DNA of 28,286 nt, taken from assembly GCA_049509455.1 (NCBI GenBank), contig JBEKZX010000015.1, positions 1-28,286 of the forward strand, in the 5' to 3' direction. The notes below the pieces were generated by a model. The model ran no database searches, was not told where the DNA came from, and saw nothing but the letters and a program-made list of their open reading frames with translations. Source of the stretch: Conexivisphaerales archaeon (GTDB lineage: Archaea > Thermoproteota > Nitrososphaeria > Conexivisphaerales > DTJL01). The position numbers and the translations under genes are program-made. Numbering within the stretch: position 1 is the first letter of the stretch; every line of letters begins with the position of its first letter. This document shows, in pieces, positions 15,052 through 27,437 of this stretch.

Positions 15052-15077
15052 GCTTTCATGCACGTCGATAGGGCGGG

Positions 15078-15085
15078 TTCTAAAG
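15078..15085. promoter_or_regulatory. Candidate bidirectional TATA-like element
   Basis: TTCTAAAG (minus strand CTTTAGAA), about 31 nt from the MFS GTG 15051 and about 34 nt from the TTG 15116 of the divergent small gene. Confidence 0.35.
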
Positions 15086-15115
15086 GTTGCCGTACCCTTG
15101 CCGGACGTCCCTTCC

Positions 15116-15337
15116 TTGAACGTAGGCTGGGTCAAGGTGCTGGTCGCCGTCGCCGTGGGACTGCTGATGTTCATCGTCGGTGTTCGTCACTTCAAGATCT
15201 TCCCACCGCAGGATTTCCCGCCGAATCAGACAAATGACAGGCTTCCCTACGACGCCCTCAGGACGAGCATCAGGACGCTTCTGGCGGACCCGGCGAACTC
15301 AGGGGCTAGCGAAGAGCTGCTTCAGCGCTTCTCCTGA
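15116..15337 (+). CDS. Small single-TM membrane protein (about 73 aa)
   Basis: TTG start; MNVGWVKVLVAVAVGLLMFIVGVRHFKIFPPQDFPPNQTNDRLPYDALRTSIRTLLADPANSGASEELLQRFS*; strong GC3 bias. An alternative TTG lies at 15098. Confidence 0.6.
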   Translation: MNVGWVKVLVAVAVGLLMFIVGVRHFKIFPPQDFPPNQTNDRLPYDALRTSIRTLLADPANSGASEELLQRFS

Positions 15338-15659
15338 ACCTGAAGGCGGTCACCGCGGCGTATGCGGCGACTGAGACGACGAGACCGAACCAGTCAGCCG
15401 CGTAGATGAGCCCGAGCGCCACGCCAATGGTGAAGACGACGCCATCACGGACGATGGTGTCACCTTCTTGGAAGTACCACGCCACGAGCAGCTCGGCGAG
15501 GACGATGTAGGCCACCACGGGCGCCGCCGAACTCGCTTCGGCCTCTCCCATCACAGAAAGCACCAACCCAAACACCAAGAGCAGCATGCTCTCGCGGACG
15601 CCATCGAAGGTCAGTCTGGCGGACCTCATTACGTGCTTGAGGGATCCTTCTGGAGCCAT
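15306..15659 (-). CDS. Small multi-TM hypothetical membrane protein
   Basis: Four hydrophobic segments; AGGAG 5 nt before ATG 15659 (ORF extends to 15683); 3' end overlaps the convergent small gene by 32 nt. Confidence 0.65.
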   Translation of the reverse strand: MAPEGSLKHVMRSARLTFDGVRESMLLLVFGLVLSVMGEAEASSAAPVVAYIVLAELLVAWYFQEGDTIVRDGVVFTIGVALGLIYAADWFGLVVSVAAYAAVTAFRFRRSAEAALR

Positions 15660-15958
15660 AGGATGCTCCTCCGCAACCATCAAGACACCCTCCTAGATGG
15701 TAGGAGAGCGAACGAAGGAGGAGGGTCGCAATGTGCCGATCCCGGGGGAGGGCTCGGCCTGTACGCCATGGGTCTAGCGACCAGGCCGAATCTCTCCGGG
15801 TGCGTCCTACCCCATTCACGCCAGCCGTTCAACCCATTCGTCAGGTTCAAAGTTGCCTGGTACGCTATTTATCGGATTTCCGAAAACGTTCCATAATCAC
15901 TAGTGATAGGACGCAAAGTGTGGCGTCATAGCGGCCCGCGCCGCCGCTTGTGGACCGC

Positions 15959-16708
15959 TCAGTAGATCCCGTCGAGCGCCCTGTTGTACTTATCCGAAAA
16001 TATGGCGCTTGACAACTCCTTTGTCGACAGCTCGTGCGTCACCTTTCCGTCCCTCACTGCGTAGGCTCTGTCACACTGGGAGATTACGATGGGATCATGG
16101 GTTACGATGACGAAGGTCACGTTCTTCTCCTTCCTGAGCTCCTTAATCAGGTCCATGAGTCTCTTGGCTGACTTCGAGTCCAGGTCCCCCGTCGGCTCGT
16201 CGGCTAGGATTACTGAAGGTCCATTGGCAAGGGCCCTAGCGACGGCCACCCTCTGCTGCTCTCCTCCGCTTAGCTCGTCGGGCCTGTGATGGAGCCTCTC
16301 CTCTAGCCCCACCGTCTTCAGGAGCTCCCGCGCTCGATCGTCCTGCACCCCCTTCGGCACGTTGGCGAACGACATGGGCAGCTCCACGTTTTCGAGGGCG
16401 GAGAGCGTCGAAATCAGGTTGTAGAACTGGAAGATGAAGCCGACCTTGTTCAGCCGGTAATCCGCCAGCTCGGATTCTCCCAGCTGGCTCAGGTCGACCC
16501 CGTCGACCACCACCTTCCCCTGCGACGGCCTGTCCAAGCCTCCGATCAGGTTCAGGAGCGTCGTCTTCCCCGACCCCGAAGGGCCGATGATCCCCACGAT
16601 TTCGCCCCGATTGATCTTCAGGCTCACACCGTTCAACGCCGGAACGGGCACCTTCCCTCTCCTGTACTGCTTGGTGGCTTGGACGGTCTCAACGAGGCTC
16701 TCAGACAT
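15959..16708 (-). CDS. ABC ATP-binding protein, LolD/MacB/FtsE family
   Basis: GPSGSGKTT, FIFQFYNLI, LSGGEQQRVAVARAL, LADEPTGDLD, VTHD. Confidence 0.95.
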   Translation of the reverse strand: MSESLVETVQATKQYRRGKVPVPALNGVSLKINRGEIVGIIGPSGSGKTTLLNLIGGLDRPSQGKVVVDGVDLSQLGESELADYRLNKVGFIFQFYNLISTLSALENVELPMSFANVPKGVQDDRARELLKTVGLEERLHHRPDELSGGEQQRVAVARALANGPSVILADEPTGDLDSKSAKRLMDLIKELRKEKNVTFVIVTHDPIVISQCDRAYAVRDGKVTHELSTKELSSAIFSDKYNRALDGIY

Positions 16709-17978
16709 GTCTTAGCGCCTCCACAGGGTCCATCCTCGTAGCACGCCAGGCCGGGTATATGCCGGCGAGGATGCCCACAAGGGTCCCGAGCCCCAAGCTG
16801 AGGACGAGGTTAAATGCCGTTAACGTAGGGGCCAGCCTGCCTGGGATAAGCCCCGCAGCTGCCCGACCTGCTCCACCAGCCGCGATGCCTCCGGTGAGGG
16901 AAGGCATGAACAGGGTCACCGCGATGCCTACGCCCAATCCCACGACAGCGCCGATCAGGCCGATGATGACCGCTTCGCTCATGAAGATCTTCATGACCTG
17001 GCCCCTACGGGCGCCTATCGCCCTCAGGGTACCTATCTCGCGGGTCCTTTCGCTGATCGACATCATCATGGTGTTCACTACGCCGAATCCGCCGGCGAGC
17101 AAGGCCACAAGCCCAATGACAGTGAAGAAGGTGGTCAGCGTGCTGGATAGGGAGGAGGCCGTGCCGGTGACGCCGTTGGCCGTTGTCACTCTGACGCCTG
17201 CGATGGTGGAGGAGATTATGGTGGCAAGGCTCTGCACCGTGCTGGAGTCGGTGGCCTTTACGTAAATTTCCGACACCTGCCCGGTCTCGTTGGCTATGCT
17301 CTGGGCGTTCGCCAGCGTAATGTAGGCCGACCGTGCTTCCGCTCCGAAGGTGCTGCCTGTAGAATAGAGTCCCACTACCGTATAGTTCGCCACATCTGTG
17401 GAGTTGGCCCCAACCGTGACCACGTCACCCACGGTCACGTTGAGGTTCGACGCCAACGTGCTGTCCAGGACGATTTCGTTCTGCTGCGGCGAGGAATCCA
17501 AGGAAGTCCCGTTGACAATGTTCAGCCCGTTGGTGACTGCGGAATAGGTGCTAGGGTCGATCCCGTTGAGGAAGACGGTGCCGTTGTCGACGTATCCGCT
17601 GGTCGACAGCTGCACGGAGGTGGCATAGACGCCCGTTATGTTTCCAATCTCCCCGACCACCGTGTCGGGGAGCGTGTTGCCAGATCCGAATATCTGCTGG
17701 AAACTGAAGCCTCCGTATCCGCCCCCGGGAGCTCCGCCACCGAACCCCCCGAACCCGCTGAAAGTCGTCCTGTTGAACTGGGGGGTGGTGCCGTTCGCCA
17801 CCGTAATCTCCGCCCCGATGAGGTTCCTCACGAGGCCGCTGGTCTGCGCCGACGTGCCCGCGGCCAGCGAAAGCAAGACGAGGATCATGGCGACGCCTAT
17901 GACGATGCCCGACACGGTGAGGGCAGTCCTCGTCTTCCTCTGCCTCAAGCTTCTTATCGCTAGATTCCAGGAGGACAA
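16701..17978 (-). CDS. ABC permease, MacB/FtsX type (four TM helices plus a large extracellular domain)
   Basis: RQRKTRTALTVSGIVIGVA, VVNTMMMSISERTREIGTLRAIGA, GIYPAWRATRMDPVEALR; TTG start. Confidence 0.95.
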   Translation of the reverse strand: MSSWNLAIRSLRQRKTRTALTVSGIVIGVAMILVLLSLAAGTSAQTSGLVRNLIGAEITVANGTTPQFNRTTFSGFGGFGGGAPGGGYGGFSFQQIFGSGNTLPDTVVGEIGNITGVYATSVQLSTSGYVDNGTVFLNGIDPSTYSAVTNGLNIVNGTSLDSSPQQNEIVLDSTLASNLNVTVGDVVTVGANSTDVANYTVVGLYSTGSTFGAEARSAYITLANAQSIANETGQVSEIYVKATDSSTVQSLATIISSTIAGVRVTTANGVTGTASSLSSTLTTFFTVIGLVALLAGGFGVVNTMMMSISERTREIGTLRAIGARRGQVMKIFMSEAVIIGLIGAVVGLGVGIAVTLFMPSLTGGIAAGGAGRAAAGLIPGRLAPTLTAFNLVLSLGLGTLVGILAGIYPAWRATRMDPVEALRHV

Positions 17979-17984
17979 TCCGAC

Positions 17985-18074
17985 CTATCGCGCTCCAAGT
18001 CTCCAGACGAGGTCGGATTCGACCGGGCAGGTAGAGCGAATCTCATCATTCGAACTGTGAACGGTTAGCAACAT
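17985..18074 (-). CDS. Candidate 29-aa upstream ORF (leader peptide) of the MacB-type operon
   Basis: ATG 18074, MLLTVHSSNDEIRSTCPVESDLVWRLGAR*. Stop is 6 nt before the permease TTG; TATA-like GTTAAATG (minus) at 18105-18112 about 34 nt upstream. Confidence 0.3.
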   Translation of the reverse strand: MLLTVHSSNDEIRSTCPVESDLVWRLGAR

Positions 18075-18267
18075 GCGCACTGCGAGTAACCGCCATCAGG
18101 GCGGCATTTAACGAATTTCCTGAATGGCTCCCTAATCTCTAGCTACCTCATAGCGAATACCCCACCCTGTGCGACCCAACGGAACAATAAAGGAGATCGG
18201 CATGTCGCGCGCTTTCCTGGTGTCTAGCGCGTCTTGCCAACAATTATGGAACCTTTGTGGAAATCCG

Positions 18268-18275
18268 TTATATAT
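18268..18275. promoter_or_regulatory. Strong TATA box in the divergent intergenic region (orientation ambiguous)
   Basis: TTATATAT, one of the clearest TATA matches in the window; TTG codons lie about 30-35 nt away on both strands (18306 on +, 18240 on -). Confidence 0.55.
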
Positions 18276-18305
18276 CGTCCGAAGCCTGCTTCTTATCTGA
18301 CTGGT

Positions 18306-18428
18306 TTGTCGGAGCTTCTGCGCAAGGCCGGCCGCGATTTGTTGGAGGCGAGCTTGAAGCCGCTTGACCTCAAGTTCGAGCTCGGCTCCAAGCTTGGGAT
18401 CTTGGGGGCCAATCCTTGGACATCATAA
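18306..18428 (+). CDS. Possible small protein or frameshifted relic
   Basis: TTG about 35 nt after the TATA; MSELLRKAGRDLLEASLKPLDLKFELGSKLGILGANPWTS*. One extra G in the G5 run would extend it as GGQSLDIITSNLVARIA*. Confidence 0.3.
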   Translation: MSELLRKAGRDLLEASLKPLDLKFELGSKLGILGANPWTS

Positions 18429-18598
18429 CTTCGAACCTGGTAGCGAGGATAGCATGACGACCACCGTCCCCCGGCCTGGCCACTCCGACTTCGCGGTTCC
18501 TCTCATGAAGGAGGCGCTCCGTTCGTCAGGGCGGGAGCTTCTTGACGCTCGGCCCTCCGATATCGTTATTTCAGGGCGTCGTTTGAGTCGTAGCGGTC

Positions 18599-18922
18599 TT
18601 GGATGCATACGAGCGCCTTCTCTGGTGGCTCTTCGCGGGGAGCGCCGGCGCAAAGACGAGGGTCCAGGTCCTTCTGGCGATAAGGGAGGAGCCGAGGAAC
18701 GCCCTTCAGCTCTCCCAGAAGCTGGGGCTGGACTACACTACCGTGAGGCATCACCTGAAGGTACTAGAGAAGAACGGAATAGTGGTGAGCGAAGGTGAAA
18801 AGTACGGCAGGCTGTACTTCGTCTCCGACGCCATGGAGTTCCACTGGAAGGGCTTCGAATCCATCCTTGAGAAGACAGGCCGCGCCAAGCGAGGAGGTGA
18901 AACCAGAAATGGGAGCAGTTGA
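18599..18922 (+). CDS. ArsR-like winged helix-turn-helix transcription regulator (archaeal LLWWL-x-AG subfamily)
   Basis: ERLLWWLFAGSAGAKTRVQVL...PRNALQLSQKLGLDYTTVRHHLKVLEKNGIV...KYGRLYF; TTG start; TTATTT at 18566-18571 about 30 nt upstream. Confidence 0.92.
   Translation: MDAYERLLWWLFAGSAGAKTRVQVLLAIREEPRNALQLSQKLGLDYTTVRHHLKVLEKNGIVVSEGEKYGRLYFVSDAMEFHWKGFESILEKTGRAKRGGETRNGSS
18893..18900 (+). promoter_or_regulatory. Shine-Dalgarno sequence for the membrane-protein gene
   Basis: GGAGGTGA 8 nt before ATG 18909. Confidence 0.75.
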
Positions 18923-19349
18923 GAAGAAGGGTCATGGCGCCTTCATATGGCTGATGGCGGTACTGCTTATCGGGATCGGAGCCGGGGTCATACTCTCCAT
19001 ATTCGACCAGATACATGGATTCGGGTTTGGGTTCGGCTTCGGTCGCCAGCTGCCATTCAACCTCCTCGAGCCCGTGCTGACGCTGAACGCCATCTTATCC
19101 ACCACCAGCATAGCCCTACTAGTCGCCCTCTTGATCGTCTATGTGAGGTTGTACTCCGAGACGAGGGCCAACTTTTCACTGGGGCTTGTAATCGTGCTGT
19201 GTGCGCTGCTGCTGAACTCGCTGATATCGCACCCTCTGCTGCTGGTGAGGGCTGGGCCCATACCCTTGGGTCCAAGGGAGTTCCTTTCGACAGCGGAGAT
19301 CTTCCTGGTGGTGGCCTACGCGGTCTTCCTATATCTGAGCCTGGAGTAG
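18909..19349 (+). CDS. Four-TM membrane protein coupled to the wHTH regulator
   Basis: Start at ATG 18909 (SD-supported, 14-nt overlap with the regulator); IVYVRLYSETRANFSLGL pattern; GFGFGFGFG loop. Confidence 0.85.
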   Translation: MGAVEKKGHGAFIWLMAVLLIGIGAGVILSIFDQIHGFGFGFGFGRQLPFNLLEPVLTLNAILSTTSIALLVALLIVYVRLYSETRANFSLGLVIVLCALLLNSLISHPLLLVRAGPIPLGPREFLSTAEIFLVVAYAVFLYLSLE

Positions 19350-19420
19350 CCAGGCTAGGACCCGAAGGCCGCCGGCCATCAGACAGGGGCCAGGCGCAGG
19401 TGCCCCTGATAGCTCCACCC

Positions 19421-20517: not shown

Positions 20518-20974
20518 GCTTGACCAGCAAGCACGAACGACTCGGGGATTCATTTCGTGGGCCGCTCCAGAGTCCGTAAGGCCGGGTCGCCTATGGTGAA
20601 GATAAGTGTACTCACCACCTCTTAAGGTCGAAAAATTCTTCAAGGCACCAAGTGGCTGCATAGATGTCGACGAAATCCGATGCGTATTTGCGGGAGGACC
20701 CTACGCTGCTACTGGCATCGACATCTCCCGCCGTGCTCGGTGAGGATTACTCTCTGGTTTCCTGCATCCTGGAGCCCATCTGCCTGGATCAATTTGTGTT
20801 CTCCACGTGTCCTCACGCCGATGTCCCCTGCCTGCGCCATCGCTATGAAAGTATGGCCGACGGGGAGGGCGAGCGCGCTCCAAGGCCGCATACCACCTTC
20901 AGGGCCAAAGGAGGGGCCCCGGGCCGAAGGGAGACGAGGTCGCCACCTGTTGCCCCACGGTCCTCTAAATCGTC

Positions 20975-21220
20975 ATGGACGAGGCCAAGGATATCAAGTG
21001 TGTTGGCAAGGACGTCAAGCACGGCATCAAGGCCGGCGACCACATGGCTGAGGACCTTTCTGAAGTCAAGCGGACAGTCAGCGAAATCCAGGAGACCCAG
21101 GGAGGGGCCCGTCCGTATGAGCCGGCGGCGACGGAAGGGAGGCGCCCTGGCTCTCCCAAGGCAGCACGATCCTGTACACTCCTATCGGGGCTTGGACGTT
21201 CTTCAGCTCCTGCTTCCTGA
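20975..21220 (+). CDS. Possible small hydrophilic protein or relic
   Basis: MDEAKDIKCVGKDVKHGIKAGDHMAEDLSEVKRTVSEIQETQ has coding-like GC3 bias. The 3' part overlaps the cyclase gene antisense, and there is no well-spaced promoter. Confidence 0.25.
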   Translation: MDEAKDIKCVGKDVKHGIKAGDHMAEDLSEVKRTVSEIQETQGGARPYEPAATEGRRPGSPKAARSCTLLSGLGRSSAPAS

Positions 21221-24200
21221 GCTCCAAGAACTTGCACTCAAGCTTGTTCCACACCTGATCGTACACCTGCTGCGAAACGCAGATCCCCCCTGCCTCGGCC
21301 AATGGCCTTATCCTGGAGGCGATGTTGACGACGTCGCCCAACACATCTCCTCCCCTATGCACTACGTCTCCCACATGGACCCCCACTCTCAGCTCGATTC
21401 GCCTTTCGGCCTTCGCGCCCAGGTTCTTTTCGTAAGTCGCCTTTTGAATATCGATGGCGAAGGATGTCGCCTCCAGCGCGCTCGCGAATTCGATCAGGAA
21501 CGAGTCACCTATGGTCTTAACCTCCCTCCCGTTGTGTTTCGGCAGGGTTTCCCGAACCAGCCGCTCGTGCTCCTTGAGAAGCTCTAGGGTCAAAGCCTCG
21601 TTCTTCTGCGTCAGGGCCGTGTAGCCGACGACGTCAGTAAAGACGATGGCCGAGAGGCCCCTCTTGTCCGCCCGAGAAACGCCGCCCGTCACTGTCAGGA
21701 TCACGGCCTCGGGAGTATACCCCCGGTACTTCCCTCCTTCGTCTAGGTACAGGAACTTTGGGGCAATCTCCATCACGCCCGCCTCCCAGGGGATGACCTT
21801 CAGCCTGATCTCCTCTGTGGCCATGGGCTCTATCTTCCTGGCCTTGAAGACCAGATGATCTATCTCCCAGACCACCCCTGGGGAAACGCTTTCGACGTCC
21901 GCAGCGGGAGGGAACCCATCCACCTTCACCATCAGCGCCGGAGCGTTCCCTGCGTTGACCATCTCCAGCTCGAGCTGGACAGCCTCCCCTGCGGCTGCCT
22001 CCTCTTTCGACAGGGTCATGTTGCACTGGATGTTGGCGTGTTGGAGCCACTCATAGCCAACCGACTGGTCGCGCGTAAGGGACGGGGCCTTCTCAGGCAT
22101 CTGCAACACGATGCCGGCGTCGAGGGCTTCCGCGGGGGATGCGAAGACGCTCTTCCTCTGCTTGACCTGCTCCAGGTGGCGCTCCGCCTCCTGCTGCTTC
22201 CCGGTGTATCCCGCCTTCGCATAGAGTCGCGCGGCTGACTCGAAGCTGCTTTCTGCCAAAGAGTAAAGCCTCGCCTTCTCGTTCGTGGCGAGCTCCCCTT
22301 CCGCCTCGGTCAGATACACAGACCCGTCAAACATCCTTTCCGTCGCCGTCGTCCAGCTGGCGGCTCTTTCCATGCCGGCCTCCGTGTAGTAGTCGGTCGC
22401 CGCCTCTAACTGCTGCTTGGCCACCCTGAAAAGCGAAGGGTCTCGATTGACGCGCAATCCCGCCCCTGCCTCCAAGGCGTGACAGAAGGCGGCGTTTCCG
22501 CGCGCCATCGCTACGAGCTTGTCGTCCCTGCTGCTCCCGGACACGTCCTCGAAGAGCTTCGCGGCGCTCGCATATCTTTCTGGCTTCTCTTGTGTCTCCG
22601 CCTGCTTCAGCAGCTGCCATGCCCTGCACAGGAGCGCCAAGGTGATCGTCTCCTCCCTCCACTCTCCGTCTCCTCCAGACTTGGCCAGCTGTTCGAGGAG
22701 CTCCGCCGCCGATTCGAAACCTTGAGCGCTCTCTAATCGCTCGCCTCTGCGGTCCAGGAGCTTCGCCTCCTCCAGATTCGCCATTGCGAGCGAATACCTT
22801 TCCCTTGACACAGAAAGCGCCAGCCATCCGCTGGCCTCGGATTGCTCCTCAAGGGAGGGTAGGGAGCTCCCCCATTTCTCTAACGCTACAGCCGCGGCCG
22901 CAAATCCCTCCGCCGCCTTGGCAAAGAGCTTCGCAGCCGCGTCGGGCTCCTCACTCCTAGAGAACTGCTCTCCATCCTCTAAGACTCCGCAGGCAGAGTA
23001 GTGCAACCCTAGGGGTGACCACCGCTGAACCTTGGAGAGGATGTCGCTCGCGCGCCGATAAGCTTCGGCCGCGGGTGCGAAGCGCCCTGCCGAATGAGCG
23101 AAACGTGCCTGCTCTATATGCTGCCAGGCGAGCATGTATTGCGATAGCTCTTCATAGAGAGTTCTCAAGCTCGGACTTTCGCTGACCGATCCGCTGTAAG
23201 CAGCGGAGGCGCGGGCGTACTCCCTGGCGGCCTCCTGCGGCTTACCCATAAGATCCTTGACGCTGGCTTTCAGCCACAGGGCCTCGGCAACACGCGTCGA
23301 TCTTCCGATCCTGTCGAATTCCTTCGTGGCCTCATCTAGGACCTTCAGCTCATCTTCAAGAAGCGCCCTCTCGCTGGAGAGCTCGTAGAGGTCCTGGAGG
23401 ACCTTGGCAAATCGAAAGGCGGAGTTGCCCATGCGCAGGACCTGTCCGTCGGTTAGAGGCTGCACGACCGTCGCGATCTTCGAGAACCCCTCTCTGAACT
23501 CTTTCGCGGCGTCTTCCAGAAGGCCCCTCTTCTCGGATTCATCTAGGATGTCCTTCGCCAGCAGCGAGCGCATGGTCGCCTCTGAAATCATCTGGATTCC
23601 GAGGTTCCAGGAGAAGTGTGGAGAAGTCCGCAACGCGATCTCCGTCGCCCTCCTGTCCAGCTCGACAGCTTCATTGAGTATGGCCTTCCTCTTCCCGGCG
23701 TCCTCCTCAATCAATGCCAGCTGCTGCAAGGCCTCGGCCCCGGCGTACCAAAGGTAGGGGAGGTTGTCGTTGAATTCGCCCTCCCCTAGCTGATACGCTT
23801 CGCGGAAGATGGAGATTCCTTCCTCGATGGTCCTCCTCCTCAGGGGCTGGTCGGTGATGAAACCAGTTGCGAACACGAAGTAGCTTTGGACCATGTCGCC
23901 ATAGAGGTTTAGAAGGAAGTACCGTGAGACCGGGTCAGAAAGGTGTCGCAGGCGCCGCCTTCCCTCCTCGTAGTAGAGCTTCACCGTTTCAAAGAGCTCC
24001 CTTGCAGGCTCCTCGTTCTTCTCGGCCACCAACTTCCAGCGAGTAGAGAACGCCAGTCCAGACAACGCAACACCGATTTCGGTTCCGTTGTCGGTCTTCT
24101 GCGCCTCCGATAAGGCTAGGTCCAGATGTTGCTGAAGGGTCGTTCCGAGAGACTCCCCAAAGAGTGCAGACACGTTGGCAACCGAAGAATGCAACCTCGA

Positions 24201-24917
24201 GAGAGTCAGGTGGTCGGTGATCGTCGGGGCGATGCTCGCCGCCTCCACGGCGATCCTCTTGACGCGACCTTCCTCTCTGGCCCAACCCTCCATCGCAAAA
24301 TACGCGCCCAGGGCCAGCCAGACCCATTTCAGATACATCTCTCCCGCTAGGTTCGCGTCGGAAGGAAGCTTCTTTGTGGATGTCAGGCGCTCGATGAGGT
24401 CCAGGCCCTCCGTCAGAAGAGGGGTGATCCGCTCATCGCCGTGGAGGAGAGAACGTTCGTAAATCAGCTGGAGGTGGTAGTTCACCTGCTCGAAATAGGC
24501 CTCACCCGTGGTGGGGTCAAGCTTCTGCAGGACGACCCTCTGGACGCCTATAGCGTCGTCCAAAAGAAGGACGCGCTCTTCATGCTCCGCGGACATGATG
24601 CTCTGCAGCCGCAGACGGCGAGCCTTCGCTATCATGTGCTGGGTCTCGCTCGCTTCGAAGGTGACCAGCGCCTCCGCCGTCCGAAAAGCTTCGACTCCCG
24701 CATCCACGAAGTGCTCGAACTCCGAGGCGCTCAGCGACTGGTAGGCCGCCTGCTCGTAGCAGTATCCAATTCGCATGGAAGCATTCGCCGCCTCCTCGGA
24801 GCTAGGTGCCACTTGCGAAAGCAGCGCTGCGTATTTCTCCGCGGCTTGGCTCCATTCGTAACCCTTCTCACGTTCAAGGGCTTCATGGAGAATGGATGGA
24901 GCTTTCGGAGAAGACAT
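21078..24917 (-). CDS. Large helical-repeat (TPR/SNAP-like) + Ig-like beta-sandwich + C-terminal class III adenylate/guanylate cyclase fusion (1279 aa)
   Basis: Cyclase motifs AIVFTDVVGYT, EVKTIGDSF, LRVGVHVGDV, GDVLGDVVNIASRI, ELKNV (about 21140-21665). CARDB/BatD-like segment about 21690-22040. Ala-rich A-A-x-x-Y/F-x-x-A helical repeats upstream. No TM segment or signal peptide. Confidence 0.9.
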   Translation of the reverse strand: MSSPKAPSILHEALEREKGYEWSQAAEKYAALLSQVAPSSEEAANASMRIGYCYEQAAYQSLSASEFEHFVDAGVEAFRTAEALVTFEASETQHMIAKARRLRLQSIMSAEHEERVLLLDDAIGVQRVVLQKLDPTTGEAYFEQVNYHLQLIYERSLLHGDERITPLLTEGLDLIERLTSTKKLPSDANLAGEMYLKWVWLALGAYFAMEGWAREEGRVKRIAVEAASIAPTITDHLTLSRLHSSVANVSALFGESLGTTLQQHLDLALSEAQKTDNGTEIGVALSGLAFSTRWKLVAEKNEEPARELFETVKLYYEEGRRRLRHLSDPVSRYFLLNLYGDMVQSYFVFATGFITDQPLRRRTIEEGISIFREAYQLGEGEFNDNLPYLWYAGAEALQQLALIEEDAGKRKAILNEAVELDRRATEIALRTSPHFSWNLGIQMISEATMRSLLAKDILDESEKRGLLEDAAKEFREGFSKIATVVQPLTDGQVLRMGNSAFRFAKVLQDLYELSSERALLEDELKVLDEATKEFDRIGRSTRVAEALWLKASVKDLMGKPQEAAREYARASAAYSGSVSESPSLRTLYEELSQYMLAWQHIEQARFAHSAGRFAPAAEAYRRASDILSKVQRWSPLGLHYSACGVLEDGEQFSRSEEPDAAAKLFAKAAEGFAAAAVALEKWGSSLPSLEEQSEASGWLALSVSRERYSLAMANLEEAKLLDRRGERLESAQGFESAAELLEQLAKSGGDGEWREETITLALLCRAWQLLKQAETQEKPERYASAAKLFEDVSGSSRDDKLVAMARGNAAFCHALEAGAGLRVNRDPSLFRVAKQQLEAATDYYTEAGMERAASWTTATERMFDGSVYLTEAEGELATNEKARLYSLAESSFESAARLYAKAGYTGKQQEAERHLEQVKQRKSVFASPAEALDAGIVLQMPEKAPSLTRDQSVGYEWLQHANIQCNMTLSKEEAAAGEAVQLELEMVNAGNAPALMVKVDGFPPAADVESVSPGVVWEIDHLVFKARKIEPMATEEIRLKVIPWEAGVMEIAPKFLYLDEGGKYRGYTPEAVILTVTGGVSRADKRGLSAIVFTDVVGYTALTQKNEALTLELLKEHERLVRETLPKHNGREVKTIGDSFLIEFASALEATSFAIDIQKATYEKNLGAKAERRIELRVGVHVGDVVHRGGDVLGDVVNIASRIRPLAEAGGICVSQQVYDQVWNKLECKFLELRKQELKNVQAPIGVYRIVLPWESQGASLPSPPAHTDGPLPGSPGFR

Positions 24918-24946: not shown

Positions 24947-24999
24947 ATTAATAAGCGCTCTAAAGAAACTGTGGGACCCCTGCGGGATAATCCTTTAAG
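24947..24999. promoter_or_regulatory. Divergent promoter pair (cyclase gene / ABC operon)
   Basis: Minus-strand CTTATTAAT at 24947-24955, about 34 nt before ATG 24917; plus-strand CTTTAAG at 24993-24999, about 37 nt before ATG 25033. Confidence 0.55.
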
Positions 25000-25032: not shown

Positions 25033-25803
25033 ATGCCATCGGAAGCCGTCGTAGTGGACTCCGTTACGAAGACCTTCGGTCCGAAGGTGGCGGTGAACAA
25101 CATCTCCCTGCATGTGGAGAAAGGCGAAATCCTCGGCCTGCTCGGGCCCAACGGCTCCGGCAAGAGCACGACCATGAGGATGATCATGGGCATAATGAAG
25201 CCCGACTCGGGGAGGATCTCTGTCTGCGACATCGACGTCCTAAGGCAGCCGTCCGACTCGAAGAGGCTCGTCGGCTACGTGCCCGAGTCTCCCTACCTCT
25301 ACGAGTACCTTACGGCATCAGAATACCTAGACTTCGTGGGGACCGCCTACGGGATCAAACCAGACGACAGGCGCCAGCGTGTCGCAGACCTCTTCGACGC
25401 GCTCCAGATGTCGGAACACGTGAACGAAGTTATGAGCGGTTTCTCGCAAGGCATGAAGCAGAAGGTGGCGTTCACCGCGGCGCTCCTCCACCGGCCGAGG
25501 GTCCTCGTATTGGACGAGTCCCTGAACGGCTTGGACCCGAGGTCGGCTAGAATCATCAAGGACATACTCGTCCGCCTCTCCAGGGAGGGCGTCGCCATAC
25601 TGTTCAGCACTCATGTCCTTGAGATAGCCGAGGCTGTCTGCAGCAGGATCGTCATAATGAACGAAGGGATGGTGATCGCCGAAGGCACGGCTCAGGAGCT
25701 GAGATCGCTGGCGGGCATGCCGGGATCCAGCTTGGAAGACACCTTCCTCAAACTTACAGGCAGCGAAGATACCGCCAAGATCGTGGAGGCACTGAACATT
25801 TGA
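25033..25803 (+). CDS. ABC-2 type exporter ATP-binding protein
   Basis: GPNGSGKST, FSQGMKQK, LVLDESLNGLDP, FSTHVL, SLEDTFL. Confidence 0.95.
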   Translation: MPSEAVVVDSVTKTFGPKVAVNNISLHVEKGEILGLLGPNGSGKSTTMRMIMGIMKPDSGRISVCDIDVLRQPSDSKRLVGYVPESPYLYEYLTASEYLDFVGTAYGIKPDDRRQRVADLFDALQMSEHVNEVMSGFSQGMKQKVAFTAALLHRPRVLVLDESLNGLDPRSARIIKDILVRLSREGVAILFSTHVLEIAEAVCSRIVIMNEGMVIAEGTAQELRSLAGMPGSSLEDTFLKLTGSEDTAKIVEALNI

Positions 25804-27437
25804 AACGGGATACGGTCGTGAGCCTTGCCATCGTCCTCTTCAAGTCATATTTCAGGGCGAGCCGCGCAGGCCGCAGGAGCACCTTCTCCAATCCCAATTC
25901 CATCTTCGCTATCGACGCTGTCGTCTTCGTGGTGCCGTTCGCCCTGATCTGGTACTTTCTTCCCCAAGCGCCACAGGAGATCGTCACATTCCTGGCGCCT
26001 CTTACGGCTGAGGCCGTAGTGGGCCTCCCCGTCATCCTGATCTCTGGGGTAATCCTCGCCGGGGTGCTCTTCGAATTGGGAACCGCCAGCGGCCTGGCTT
26101 CTAGCGAGGCCGTCAACTGGCTCCCCGTCACGCCTAGGGAGTATGTGGTGGCCTCCTGCCTATCTCTCGATTTCGCATATTCTCCCCTGCTGGCCTTCGG
26201 TCTCGGAGCCGTACTTCCTCTCGCCGCCGGACTCGGCTTCTCTTCGGTCATACCCTCTCTGGTGGCGCTCTCCTTCATCGCATTCTTCTGGGGGGCCGTG
26301 ATCGTCGAGGCCATCCGGTCCCTCCTAAATCGTATCTCCATGTCAGTCAACAGGAGGAGCGGCAGGCTGGGCACCATCCTTCGCATCGTGCTGGTGATCG
26401 CCCTCCTCGTAGTCTTCCAGCTGGCGTTTCAGCCCACCGTCCTCTACATCGCCCTATCCGACATCGTCAACGGGGTGAGCCTCGCCTGGTTCGTCCCCAT
26501 GGTTTGGCCTTCGGTGGCCCTGGTGGCCGAGCTTTCCTCTGACCTCTCCAAGACGGCTTCCTTTCTGGCCTTGACAGCCCTCTTCACGGTGGTGCTCTTC
26601 GAGGTGTCGGCCATGCTCAGGTCCAAGTACTGGTCGCCGGTTCCCGTCATCACGGCCTTCGCCTCGTCTCCCGTCTATGTCCCCCAGGGGAGGTCCTTTC
26701 TGTGGCTGGACCCCGTTTCATACGCCCTCGCCATCAAGGACCTAAGGTCTCTGACCAGGCGGAGGGAGATGAGCAGGTTCCTAGCCATCCCCGTGCTGCT
26801 GGTCGTCGTCTTCCTCCTCCCATCTCTTTACGGCGGCGGCCTCGGTGCTGATGCGACTCCCTTCAGTCTCTACCTTCTGGGAGAAGTCTCCACGCTTCTC
26901 CCCATCATGCTCTCATCCATCAGCCTCGGGCAGGAGGGGCGCTCGGTGGCAAACCTGTACATGCTCCCGATGAGTCCAGACGAGCTAATCATGGGCAAGC
27001 TCTTCCTCCCATGGGTCTTCACCGGAGCGGCGGTCGCGGTCGTTGCGTCGCTAATGCAGTTGCTCTTCCCCATGCCCATGGACCAGTTCGCCGTCGTCCT
27101 CGTCGCCCTCGCCTTCATCGTCTTCATCCAGGCGTACGTCGGGCTGGGGACCGGTGCGCGCCATCCCGACTTCACTTTGGGTCCCAGGGCTAGGTACGTC
27201 ACGGGTGTGGGCTTCTTGGTAGCCTTCGCCGTCGGGGCGCTGTCGACCCTGGTGATGTTCCTCCCACTGATGGCCAGCATGTTCCTGTCCGTCTTCTCCT
27301 CTTTCGGGCTTGGGTCGACCGGCACCGCCATTGCCGATATGGTCCTAACTGCGTCCGTCGGCGTGGTGCTCCTCCTGGCGTCGAGGGCATATTGCAGGAG
27401 CGGAGTGGAGAAGTTCCTCTCCGACATGTTGGCCTGA
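25800..27437 (+). CDS. Large (about 12-14 TM) ABC exporter permease
   Basis: TTGA overlap with the ATPase; two pseudo-repeated halves (WLPVTPREYV; MLPMSPDELIMGKL); fully hydrophobic profile. Confidence 0.88.
   Translation: MKRDTVVSLAIVLFKSYFRASRAGRRSTFSNPNSIFAIDAVVFVVPFALIWYFLPQAPQEIVTFLAPLTAEAVVGLPVILISGVILAGVLFELGTASGLASSEAVNWLPVTPREYVVASCLSLDFAYSPLLAFGLGAVLPLAAGLGFSSVIPSLVALSFIAFFWGAVIVEAIRSLLNRISMSVNRRSGRLGTILRIVLVIALLVVFQLAFQPTVLYIALSDIVNGVSLAWFVPMVWPSVALVAELSSDLSKTASFLALTALFTVVLFEVSAMLRSKYWSPVPVITAFASSPVYVPQGRSFLWLDPVSYALAIKDLRSLTRRREMSRFLAIPVLLVVVFLLPSLYGGGLGADATPFSLYLLGEVSTLLPIMLSSISLGQEGRSVANLYMLPMSPDELIMGKLFLPWVFTGAAVAVVASLMQLLFPMPMDQFAVVLVALAFIVFIQAYVGLGTGARHPDFTLGPRARYVTGVGFLVAFAVGALSTLVMFLPLMASMFLSVFSSFGLGSTGTAIADMVLTASVGVVLLLASRAYCRSGVEKFLSDMLA

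Follow-up and report, generated by a model that had tools for sequence, protein, structure and literature searches.

We examined a 28,286-nucleotide stretch of DNA (hereafter the window) from a soil/peat Conexivisphaerales archaeon (GTDB lineage Archaea; Thermoproteota; Nitrososphaeria; Conexivisphaerales; DTJL01), corresponding to positions 1 to 28,286 of the forward strand of contig JBEKZX010000015.1 in assembly GCA_049509455.1. The genome amounts to 2.05 Mb in 140 contigs and is 95.5% complete. On its reverse strand the window carries a giant gene whose product, here called P0001, joins a long helical-repeat superhelix and an immunoglobulin (Ig)-like domain to a C-terminal class III nucleotidyl cyclase. 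This three-part anatomy of helical repeats, beta-rich domain and C-terminal cyclase had been proposed in an earlier inspection of the letters and their translations (hereafter the sequence-only reading), and both an AlphaFold2 (AF2) model and a match to PF00211 agree with it. The features of the gene are listed below in amino acid (aa) and window coordinates. Alignment A6, to which several of them refer, comprises eight relatives, namely five solenoid-fused cyclases and three cyclase-first paralogues of the same genome.

21078..24917, reverse strand: whole gene for P0001, 1279 codons plus stop, one uninterrupted open reading frame (ORF) by ORF list and translation
24948..24954, reverse strand: TATA-like box TTATTAA, 31-37 nt 5' of the ATG, by direct reading of the sequence
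22152..24896, reverse strand: alpha-solenoid resembling tetratricopeptide repeats (TPR), aa 8-922, 38 helices, by AF2 and Foldseek
22032..22151, reverse strand: flexible linker, aa 923-962, by low predicted local confidence (pLDDT)
21696..22031, reverse strand: Ig-like beta-sandwich, aa 963-1074, by AF2; CARDB/BatD/TRAP-beta-like at family level
21168..21656, reverse strand: class III nucleotidyl cyclase catalytic domain, aa 1088-1250, by PF00211, PDB matches and A6
21081..21167, reverse strand: Pro/Ser/Gly-rich C-terminal tail, aa 1251-1279, by A6
21633-21635, reverse strand: metal Asp D1095, invariant in A6, aligned with Asp of 3mr7 and Ma1120
21504-21506, reverse strand: metal Asp D1138, invariant in A6, aligned with Asp of 3mr7 and Ma1120
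21516-21518, reverse strand: adenine-specifying K1134, invariant in A6, aligned with Lys of Ma1120
21345-21347, reverse strand: adenine-specifying D1191, invariant in A6, aligned with Asp of Ma1120
21324-21326, reverse strand: transition-state N1198 (in VNIASR), invariant in A6, aligned with Asn of Ma1120
21312-21314, reverse strand: transition-state R1202 (in VNIASR), invariant in A6, aligned with Arg of Ma1120
21201-21203, reverse strand: phosphate Lys K1239, invariant in A6

With the TATA-like box this close to the ATG, the leader would be short or absent. The GC content of the gene (~0.60) resembles that of the rest of the window, with no break in composition. Every motif quoted in the sequence-only reading is found where that reading placed it, both in the repeat part (AAEKYAALL at residue 25, AAREYARASAAY at 563, AAEAYRRAS at 616, AAKLFAKAAEGF at 661 and FESAARLYAKAG at 892) and in the cyclase (FTD at 1093, VKT at 1133, IGD at 1136, GDVLG at 1190, VNIASR at 1197 and LKN at 1238). 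The repeats are indeed rich in Ala, which makes up 14.1% of aa 1-930, and the signature A-[AE]-x-x-aromatic/Leu-x-x-[AS] occurs 7 times in P0001 versus 1.5 +/- 1.25 times in shuffled sequences, 7 being reached in 4 of 2000 shuffles. Hydropathy likewise agrees with the claim that there is no transmembrane (TM) segment: the maximum over 19-residue Kyte-Doolittle windows is 1.25, which predicts a soluble protein. Guanylate_cyc was the sole match in a Pfam scan of P0001 and the cyclase part of LipJ the sole match in an NCBIfam scan; neither of these scans nor a motif search revealed a Walker A motif or P-loop. The Pro/Ser/Gly-rich tail is absent from the other fused relatives in A6, including P0002, a 70%-identical orthologue from an independent metagenome that has the same domain junctions as P0001.

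The AF2 model of aa 1-1075, built from an alignment of 65 relatives (A2), has a pLDDT of 87.4 and a predicted TM-score (pTM) of 0.79. The helices of the solenoid mostly score 85-98 and the eleven strands of the Ig-like domain 80-89, and pLDDT is 28-59 across aa 926-960 of the linker, with 926-949 as its low-confidence stretch. When compared with PDB structures by Foldseek, the solenoid resembles the TPR superhelices of Ctr9, Ski3, the IFT-A subunit TTC21B and separase (best E 5.5e-12; matches to Ctr9, Ski3 and TTC21B from 5.5e-12 to 1e-8). A monomer model and a TPR search had both been proposed as checks in the sequence-only reading; the superhelix was recovered by AF2 and Foldseek, though no TPR Pfam model matched P0001 at E<=1. 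Relatives of P0001 give weak TPR_12 or SNAP matches. The label CARDB/BatD-like, given earlier to the beta-rich domain, holds at the level of the family, as the Ig domain of family member P0004 matches the Pfam models TRAP_beta (5.7e-8), BatD (7e-5) and DUF11 (1.2e-3) and TRAP_beta is found in 13% of the members of the nearest ESM Atlas cluster. It does not hold for P0001 itself, whose Ig region matched no Pfam model.

On every sequence-level measure the C-terminal domain is a member of class III. In the hidden Markov model (HMM) search suggested by the sequence-only reading, PF00211 matched aa 1090-1230 with E 2e-18 and 67.1 bits versus a cut-off of 21.9; the gene reached 71.8 bits when the model was run on its own genome, and the cyclase part of the NCBIfam model LipJ gave E 1.1e-22. 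The best PDB sequence matches were 3mr7, annotated as an adenylate/guanylate cyclase (E 2.5e-29), Ma1120 of Mycobacterium avium (4wp3/4wp9, E 1e-21) and Rv1900c/LipJ (1ybt, E 3e-15), domains of a type that we take to be class IIIc. These proteins are isolated domains or alpha/beta hydrolase fusions and, unlike P0001, none carries a solenoid or Ig module. The complete catalytic set claimed earlier is in place: D1095, K1134, D1138, D1191, N1198, R1202 and K1239 are invariant in 8/8 relatives of A6, and the Lys, Asp, Asn and Arg align with those of the Ma1120 chain, which we presume to be its catalytic residues. Because all seven canonical residues are present, established class III chemistry predicts an ATP-using enzyme that requires a dimer, and P0001 is apparently a working cyclase of predicted adenylate type. 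Class III cyclases are obligate dimers, the homodimer being arranged head to tail with two active sites; a complex prediction for two copies of the cyclase domain, based on A6, gave no answer (score 0.00) and speaks neither for nor against it. The domain might instead act in vivo as a guanylate or other nucleotide cyclase, or as a regulatory pseudo-enzyme, given that substrate choice is not certain from sequence and that some relatives, such as Rv1900c, presumably use non-canonical residues. We regard this as quite improbable, since all seven residues are canonical and invariant in relatives and since the ratio of nonsynonymous to synonymous divergence (dN/dS) in the cyclase domain is 0.06, a rough value because dS is near saturation.

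Having delimited the catalytic domain, we turn to the remaining 1075 residues. A phmmer search of 1.84 billion cluster representatives with aa 1-1075 returned 511 representatives at E<=1e-3, of which 293 reached E<=1e-30; counts of the family refer to clusters at 50% identity. The alignments span query residues 3-1075 in more than 100 representatives, including the conserved core at 540-900 and the Ig domain, and because most matches align end to end we treat the solenoid and the Ig-like part as one conserved module. For example, P0004 and P0044 are aligned with P0001 over its first 1075 residues at identities that, within the family, range from 24 to 42% (E down to 1e-246), with the same linker and Ig domain. 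Residues such as W22, W548, Y594, W598, H608, W633, E647, E650, R705, R712, E716, F789, C812, D864, E889 and G990 (P0001 numbering) are nearly invariant. Neither Pfam nor NCBIfam has an entry for this unnamed family, and its closest clusters in the ESM Atlas carry the label 'hypothetical protein'. Unlike P0001, its members mostly stop after the Ig domain or bear a winged helix or a KaiC-like, AAA, CN_hydrolase or DUF835 domain. Among the best 150 of the 511 representatives, the tails form discrete length classes:

no tail: ~80 of the best 150
tail of 115-140 aa: 43 of the best 150 (structure model and Foldseek; probably a winged helix)
KaiC-like ATPase tail: 12 of the best 150 (PF06745)
AAA ATPase tail: 4 of the best 150 (PF00004)
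carbon-nitrogen hydrolase tail: 1 of the best 150 (PF00795)
DUF835 tail: 1 of the best 150 (Pfam)
class III cyclase tail: 5 of the best 150 (Pfam Guanylate_cyc)

The tail of 115-140 aa is a probable winged helix. Its model has a pLDDT of 89.8 and its best Foldseek matches are all winged-helix regulators (PadR, MarR, AbfR2 and TFE-alpha), with a probability of 0.97-0.99 for most of the top ten and E of only 8e-3 or weaker. Pfam gives weak matches to HTH_IclR, Cdc6_C and MarR_2, and the best match of the tail profile among PDB sequences is Cdc6 at E 0.18. In some module members a helix-turn-helix (HTH) region stands at the N-terminus instead (FilR1_middle, PadR/HTH_Crp_2). In the bacterial RNPP regulators, which combine TPR and HTH (PlcR, NprR and Rgg), a repeat solenoid binds the ligand and the output is dimeric. 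The winged-helix members of the module family would be their analogues, with the differences that the TPR part of RNPP proteins is far shorter, their HTH is N-terminal and they lack an Ig domain. PMC5847659 lists DUF835 as a KaiC-like domain that has become inactive. A literature search combining KaiC, tetratricopeptide and Bathyarchaeota found nothing, and the Makarova 2017 paper on KaiC as a hub may mention the KaiC-tailed members.

The module was also sought in GTDB species genomes. P0001 alone as a query against genome contigs found no related locus, and a word-indexed search with profile A2 returned 4 proteins only, which reflects the limit of the word index. A scan with a tight bathyarchaeal sub-alignment recovered 104 module ORFs, 94 of them confirmed by the module HMM, in 79 loci (L056-L134), some copies being in tandem. 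Nearly all of these loci belong to metagenome-assembled genomes (MAGs) of Bathyarchaeia from peat or soil and a few to Thermoplasmata; single bathyarchaeal MAGs such as SPRUCE 53 and MFD04408.bin.2.62 hold 4-6 module paralogues of 1100 aa. Tails in the 82 complete genes were distributed as none (48), KaiC-like (19), winged helix (8), ~300 aa (6), AAA (1) and cyclase (0). Judged by sequence, the solenoid/Ig module is thereby shown to be a reusable platform for different C-terminal domains. The 'sensor' of the sequence-only reading stays conjectural.

The tails of ~300 aa follow the Ig-like domain in six bathyarchaeal loci (L097, L102, L106, L109, L110 and L114) and in P0058. The four that were scanned (L097, L106, L114 and P0058) belong to the PF00795 nitrilase superfamily by their matches (E 1e-6 to 9e-9), and a CN_hydrolase is an unexpected enzymatic output on a repeat-protein module.

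Fusions of the module with a cyclase are rare. With aa 940-1279 as query, a word-indexed search of 5.8 billion proteins found 815 cyclase-carrying proteins. Among the matches listed, module and cyclase occur together only in P0002, P0172, P0198, P0199, P0200 and P0248; adding P0151 (GenBank HKW04096.1, 'Nitrososphaerales archaeon'), P0176 and the frameshifted fragment P0003 brings the fusion to ~10 clusters in all. The other listed matches are mostly cyclase-first and continue into either a TolB-like/TPR part or a STAND-type ATPase/TPR part. Similarly, the three other cyclases of the genome (L001, L003 and L004) are cyclase-first TolB-like/TPR proteins of 645-649 aa. The domain order of P0001 had been called reversed in the sequence-only reading, and this holds because the remaining listed matches are mostly cyclase-first: three genome paralogues and hundreds of database relatives have the cyclase at the front, as against ~10 solenoid-first clusters. 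The fragment P0003 (743 aa, from a Logan assembly) is 76% identical to aa 3-596 of P0001, after which it continues out of frame in a stretch rich in Arg, Ser and Pro; either the copy is frameshifted or the assembly is in error.

The cyclase-first TolB-like/TPR proteins, of ~650-800 aa and named 'TolB-like protein/class 3 adenylate cyclase/Tfp pilus assembly protein PilF' by JGI, are the closest relatives of the catalytic domain. The P0001 domain falls in the same clade, is 49-53% identical to the genome paralogues and up to ~65% identical to database members, and shares the same seven catalytic residues; both kinds of protein are soluble and contain helical repeats. P0001 differs from them in having the cyclase last, in lacking a TolB-like domain and in carrying an unrelated 920-aa superhelix and an Ig-like domain. 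Scores of the fused cyclase domains are 180-205 bits with the lineage's ~650-aa paralogues but do not exceed 102 bits with bacterial matches or 23 bits with Nitrosopumilaceae-type cyclases (f2, a large family of the same class). The transferred piece is a bare catalytic domain, which begins ~12 residues past the final strand of the Ig domain and extends to the PWE motif, beyond which the cyclase-first paralogues run on into their TolB-like part. By these affinities the cyclase of P0001 is derived from the lineage's own cyclase-first TolB-like/TPR family.

The grafting appears to have happened more than once. In a maximum-likelihood (ML) tree of the cyclase domains, P0151 is sister to the genome paralogue L003 (99/99) and P0001 and P0002 form a separate clade (98/100), and from the starred branches of this tree at least two origins of the cyclase fusion follow. 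In a FastTree of the module, P0001 and P0002 lie among tail-less and winged-helix members (P0029-P0034), and P0176 is nested in another winged-helix clade. At least two independent graftings of a cyclase onto the module are indicated by these phylogenies. P0248 (ENA sample ERZ1758402), of 1405 aa, combines the module (35-1104), a probable winged helix (1106-1208) and a cyclase (1219-1388) and looks like an intermediate form. Such a protein would be a DNA-binding and a cAMP-making form at once. P0176, from the same sample, carries a cyclase without a winged helix.

We compared P0001 with P0002 to assess selection on the gene. The dN/dS values, which are rough because dS is near saturation, are 0.13 for the solenoid, 0.07 for the linker, 0.17 for the Ig domain and 0.06 for the cyclase, and show at the codon level that all parts of the gene are under purifying selection; the linker is 74% identical between the two proteins. 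Misassembly at the solenoid-cyclase junction had been named in the sequence-only reading as something that would undo it, and the genome is indeed a 140-contig assembly. Such a metagenomic chimera is very unlikely, with next to no chance of being the explanation, because the junction recurs in independent metagenomes, in P0002 as well as in P0198, P0199, P0200, P0151, P0172, P0176 and P0248; the even composition and the purifying selection on both sides of the junction speak against it too. The full module is present in 1/36 genomes of the order, that of P0001 only. Synteny with the congener G347 is kept on both flanks, by an M29-like gene on one side and an ABC (ATP-binding cassette) ATPase on the other. 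Next to the conserved ABC ATPase lies a remnant at L135:14691-14897 (G347:C3) which retains codons 5-73 only, at 68% identity, and is syntenic with window 24715-24917; an unrelated gene of 265 aa replaces the rest of the giant gene. On its content and position, this remnant is a deletion relic.

Cyclic AMP (cAMP) is present in archaea, yet its synthesis, breakdown and binding there have not been traced to any characterised enzyme (PMC10249747). In the genome of P0001 we found four PF00211 genes, that of P0001 included. The sequence-only reading had seen no cAMP receptor in the window and had suggested a scan of the genome. The window indeed holds none, and the scan found seven PF00027 cyclic-nucleotide-binding proteins elsewhere (L017-L023, on contigs C69, C51, C81, C97, C138 and C66), which are soluble proteins of 142-220 aa with no second Pfam domain. 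They share a core of ~140 aa, three being nearly equal in length (142 aa), and their phosphate-binding cassettes (FGEMA...R[ST]A) are intact. The seven are paralogous stand-alone proteins, a kind of cyclic-nucleotide-binding protein without output domain that is uncharacterised in archaea. Scans of the genome detected no SAVED, PDEase_I, PDEase_II or archaeal AmoA, results of little weight because the controls were silent or nearly so. Class III cyclases as such are widespread, being present in 93/151 sampled genomes of the class, a tally that takes in one genome (G388) flagged as unpublished, on which none of our conclusions hinges.

The reading that we favour, with a probability of roughly 60%, is that P0001 is a cytoplasmic soluble adenylate cyclase grafted onto the solenoid and Ig module, in which assembly set by the solenoid controls cAMP synthesis. 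The solenoid would bind a protein, a peptide or another ligand, and binding of the ligand or partner would set the oligomeric state. Two cyclase domains would in this way be brought together or held apart, turning a cytoplasmic cue into cAMP, which the small stand-alone cyclic-nucleotide-binding proteins would read. Among the kinds of domain that alternate with the cyclase, PadR/MarR-type winged helices work in pairs, RecA/KaiC-like and AAA ATPases form rings, and enzymes of the nitrilase superfamily assemble into dimers and larger complexes. We propose control by assembly because class III cyclases need dimers and the alternative tails of the module would likewise be dimeric or oligomeric. 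Several observations weigh against this proposal. More than half of the module family is tail-less, and the module must therefore do something in its own right besides feeding a fused output domain. Between the Ig domain and the cyclase lie only ~12 residues and no helical transducer element, so that coupling would have to proceed by proximity or assembly and not by a coiled-coil lever. The winged-helix assignment of the commonest tail stands on weak E-values. Finally, the giant gene is dispensable, as the congener has lost all of it except codons 5-73.

The tail-less majority and the short junction bear equally on the main rival, a passive scaffold, by which the module would be a structural or adaptor part, comparable to TPR superhelices of eukaryotes (Ctr9, Ski3 or SNAP), and the tethered cyclase would supply constitutive or locally confined cAMP without gating by a ligand. 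Most module members have no output domain, the best structural matches (Ctr9 and Ski3) are scaffolds of multiprotein complexes, and the cyclase junction is short and unstructured. Yet DNA-binding, ATPase, hydrolase and cyclase tails have been swapped repeatedly at one fixed position, which is the pattern of a regulator family, and no conserved neighbour at the 79 module loci offers itself as a scaffolded partner. We consider the scaffold rather unlikely, though it deserves to be kept in mind. A broader version of the assembly-controlled reading takes the module as an undescribed archaeal receptor platform for macromolecular ligands, an input of the one-component type that switches any C-terminal fusion by assembly, with P0001 coupling the platform to cAMP. 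This generalisation is tentative, and we would not bet on it at even odds. If true, P0001 would be the first candidate for a ligand-gated cAMP synthase of archaea, and a module acting as a receptor would represent a sizeable unrecognised part of archaeal signal transduction. What is new here is the rare layout of a helical-repeat class III cyclase together with an unnamed module family with swappable outputs, the cyclases themselves being ordinary in the lineage. P0001 exposes an archaeal family of ~1100-aa proteins that comprises hundreds of clusters and is often present in several copies within one bathyarchaeal genome, its cyclase version offers in cAMP the easiest read-out for finding the ligand of the module, and the genome, with its four class III cyclases and seven small cyclic-nucleotide-binding proteins, is a compact testable set.

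We also surveyed the genes around the cyclase gene. An M29-like (peptidase-like) gene lies downstream of it, and a MacB-type ABC transporter and a major facilitator superfamily (MFS) transporter are farther away. On the other side are two genes:

25033-25803, forward strand: ABC ATPase, 256 aa, transcribed away from the cyclase gene with 115 bp between them
25800-27437, forward strand: permease, 545 aa, ~12-14 predicted TM segments, no Pfam match, 4-nt overlap with the ABC ATPase gene

The sequence-only reading had proposed a comparison of homologous neighbourhoods. The ABC ATPase also adjoins P0002 (locus L024) and is thus common to the two orthologues; it was not found beside the fused relatives P0151, P0176 and P0248, whose neighbourhoods differ. 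When 984 ORFs from the 79 module loci were clustered, the neighbours that recurred most were a dockerin-like protein, at 15 loci, and an ABC ATPase, at 12, numbers too low for either to be called a partner.

The sequence-only reading had likened P0001 to pattern-recognition or immune signalling proteins. By this account the solenoid would sense a molecule of viral or other foreign origin, upon which the cyclase would emit a cyclic-nucleotide alarm in the manner of Pycsar or CBASS, the other tails being alternative effectors. A patchy distribution with loss of the gene in a sister species, many paralogues per genome, a rapid exchange of tails on conserved repeats and a weak PycC match would all suit such a role. 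P0001 does share the cyclase fold with Pycsar PycC as a homologue (PADLOC, E 6e-5), but at only 20 bits versus 67-80 bits for adenylate cyclase models, and unlike PycC it has the purine-type Lys/Asp pair, here the canonical adenine pair, and no adjacent effector gene. A Pycsar system would place a PycC-type cyclase beside a TM or TIR effector activated by cyclic nucleotides; the neighbours here are an ABC transporter and the M29-like gene, and PADLOC found generic ABC matches only for the ABC ATPase. The cyclase/STAND-type ATPase/TPR proteins, abundant among the cyclase search matches, also combine a cyclase with a long TPR part (AAA_16 or NB-ARC with TPR_12, as in the mycobacterial Rv0386 type and Nitrososphaerales 'AAA family ATPase' proteins). 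Unlike P0001, they are cyclase-first with a P-loop NTPase between cyclase and TPR, and the central NACHT, NB-ARC or AAA_16 P-loop that defines STAND/NLR proteins was sought in P0001 by Pfam, NCBIfam and Walker A searches and not found. Furthermore, none of the genome's cyclic-nucleotide-binding proteins, all small and soluble, carries a TM segment, a TIR domain or another domain for killing the cell. Transporters and a peptidase-like gene flank the cyclase gene, with no defence gene nearby, and across the 79 module loci defence genes do not recur. In the module family itself, more than half of the members lack a tail, and where there is one it is most often a DNA-binding domain. The immune analogy did not hold up against these findings and seems to us improbable.

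Two further ORFs near the cyclase gene were considered and set aside. The ORF at 20680-21051 (forward strand, 123 aa) was rejected as a gene, being Cys/Arg/Pro-rich without a family match, and that at 20664-21587 (forward strand), most of which lies antisense to the cyclase gene, is probably no gene. The neighbourhood also differs from that of the congener in a second place. A MacB/FtsX-type ABC transporter together with a pair formed by a winged HTH gene and a membrane gene occupies window 15053-19420 and is missing from the syntenic region of G347, where the MFS and M29-like genes are separated by only ~345 bp (L135:11669-12014), which makes this the second indel of the neighbourhood.

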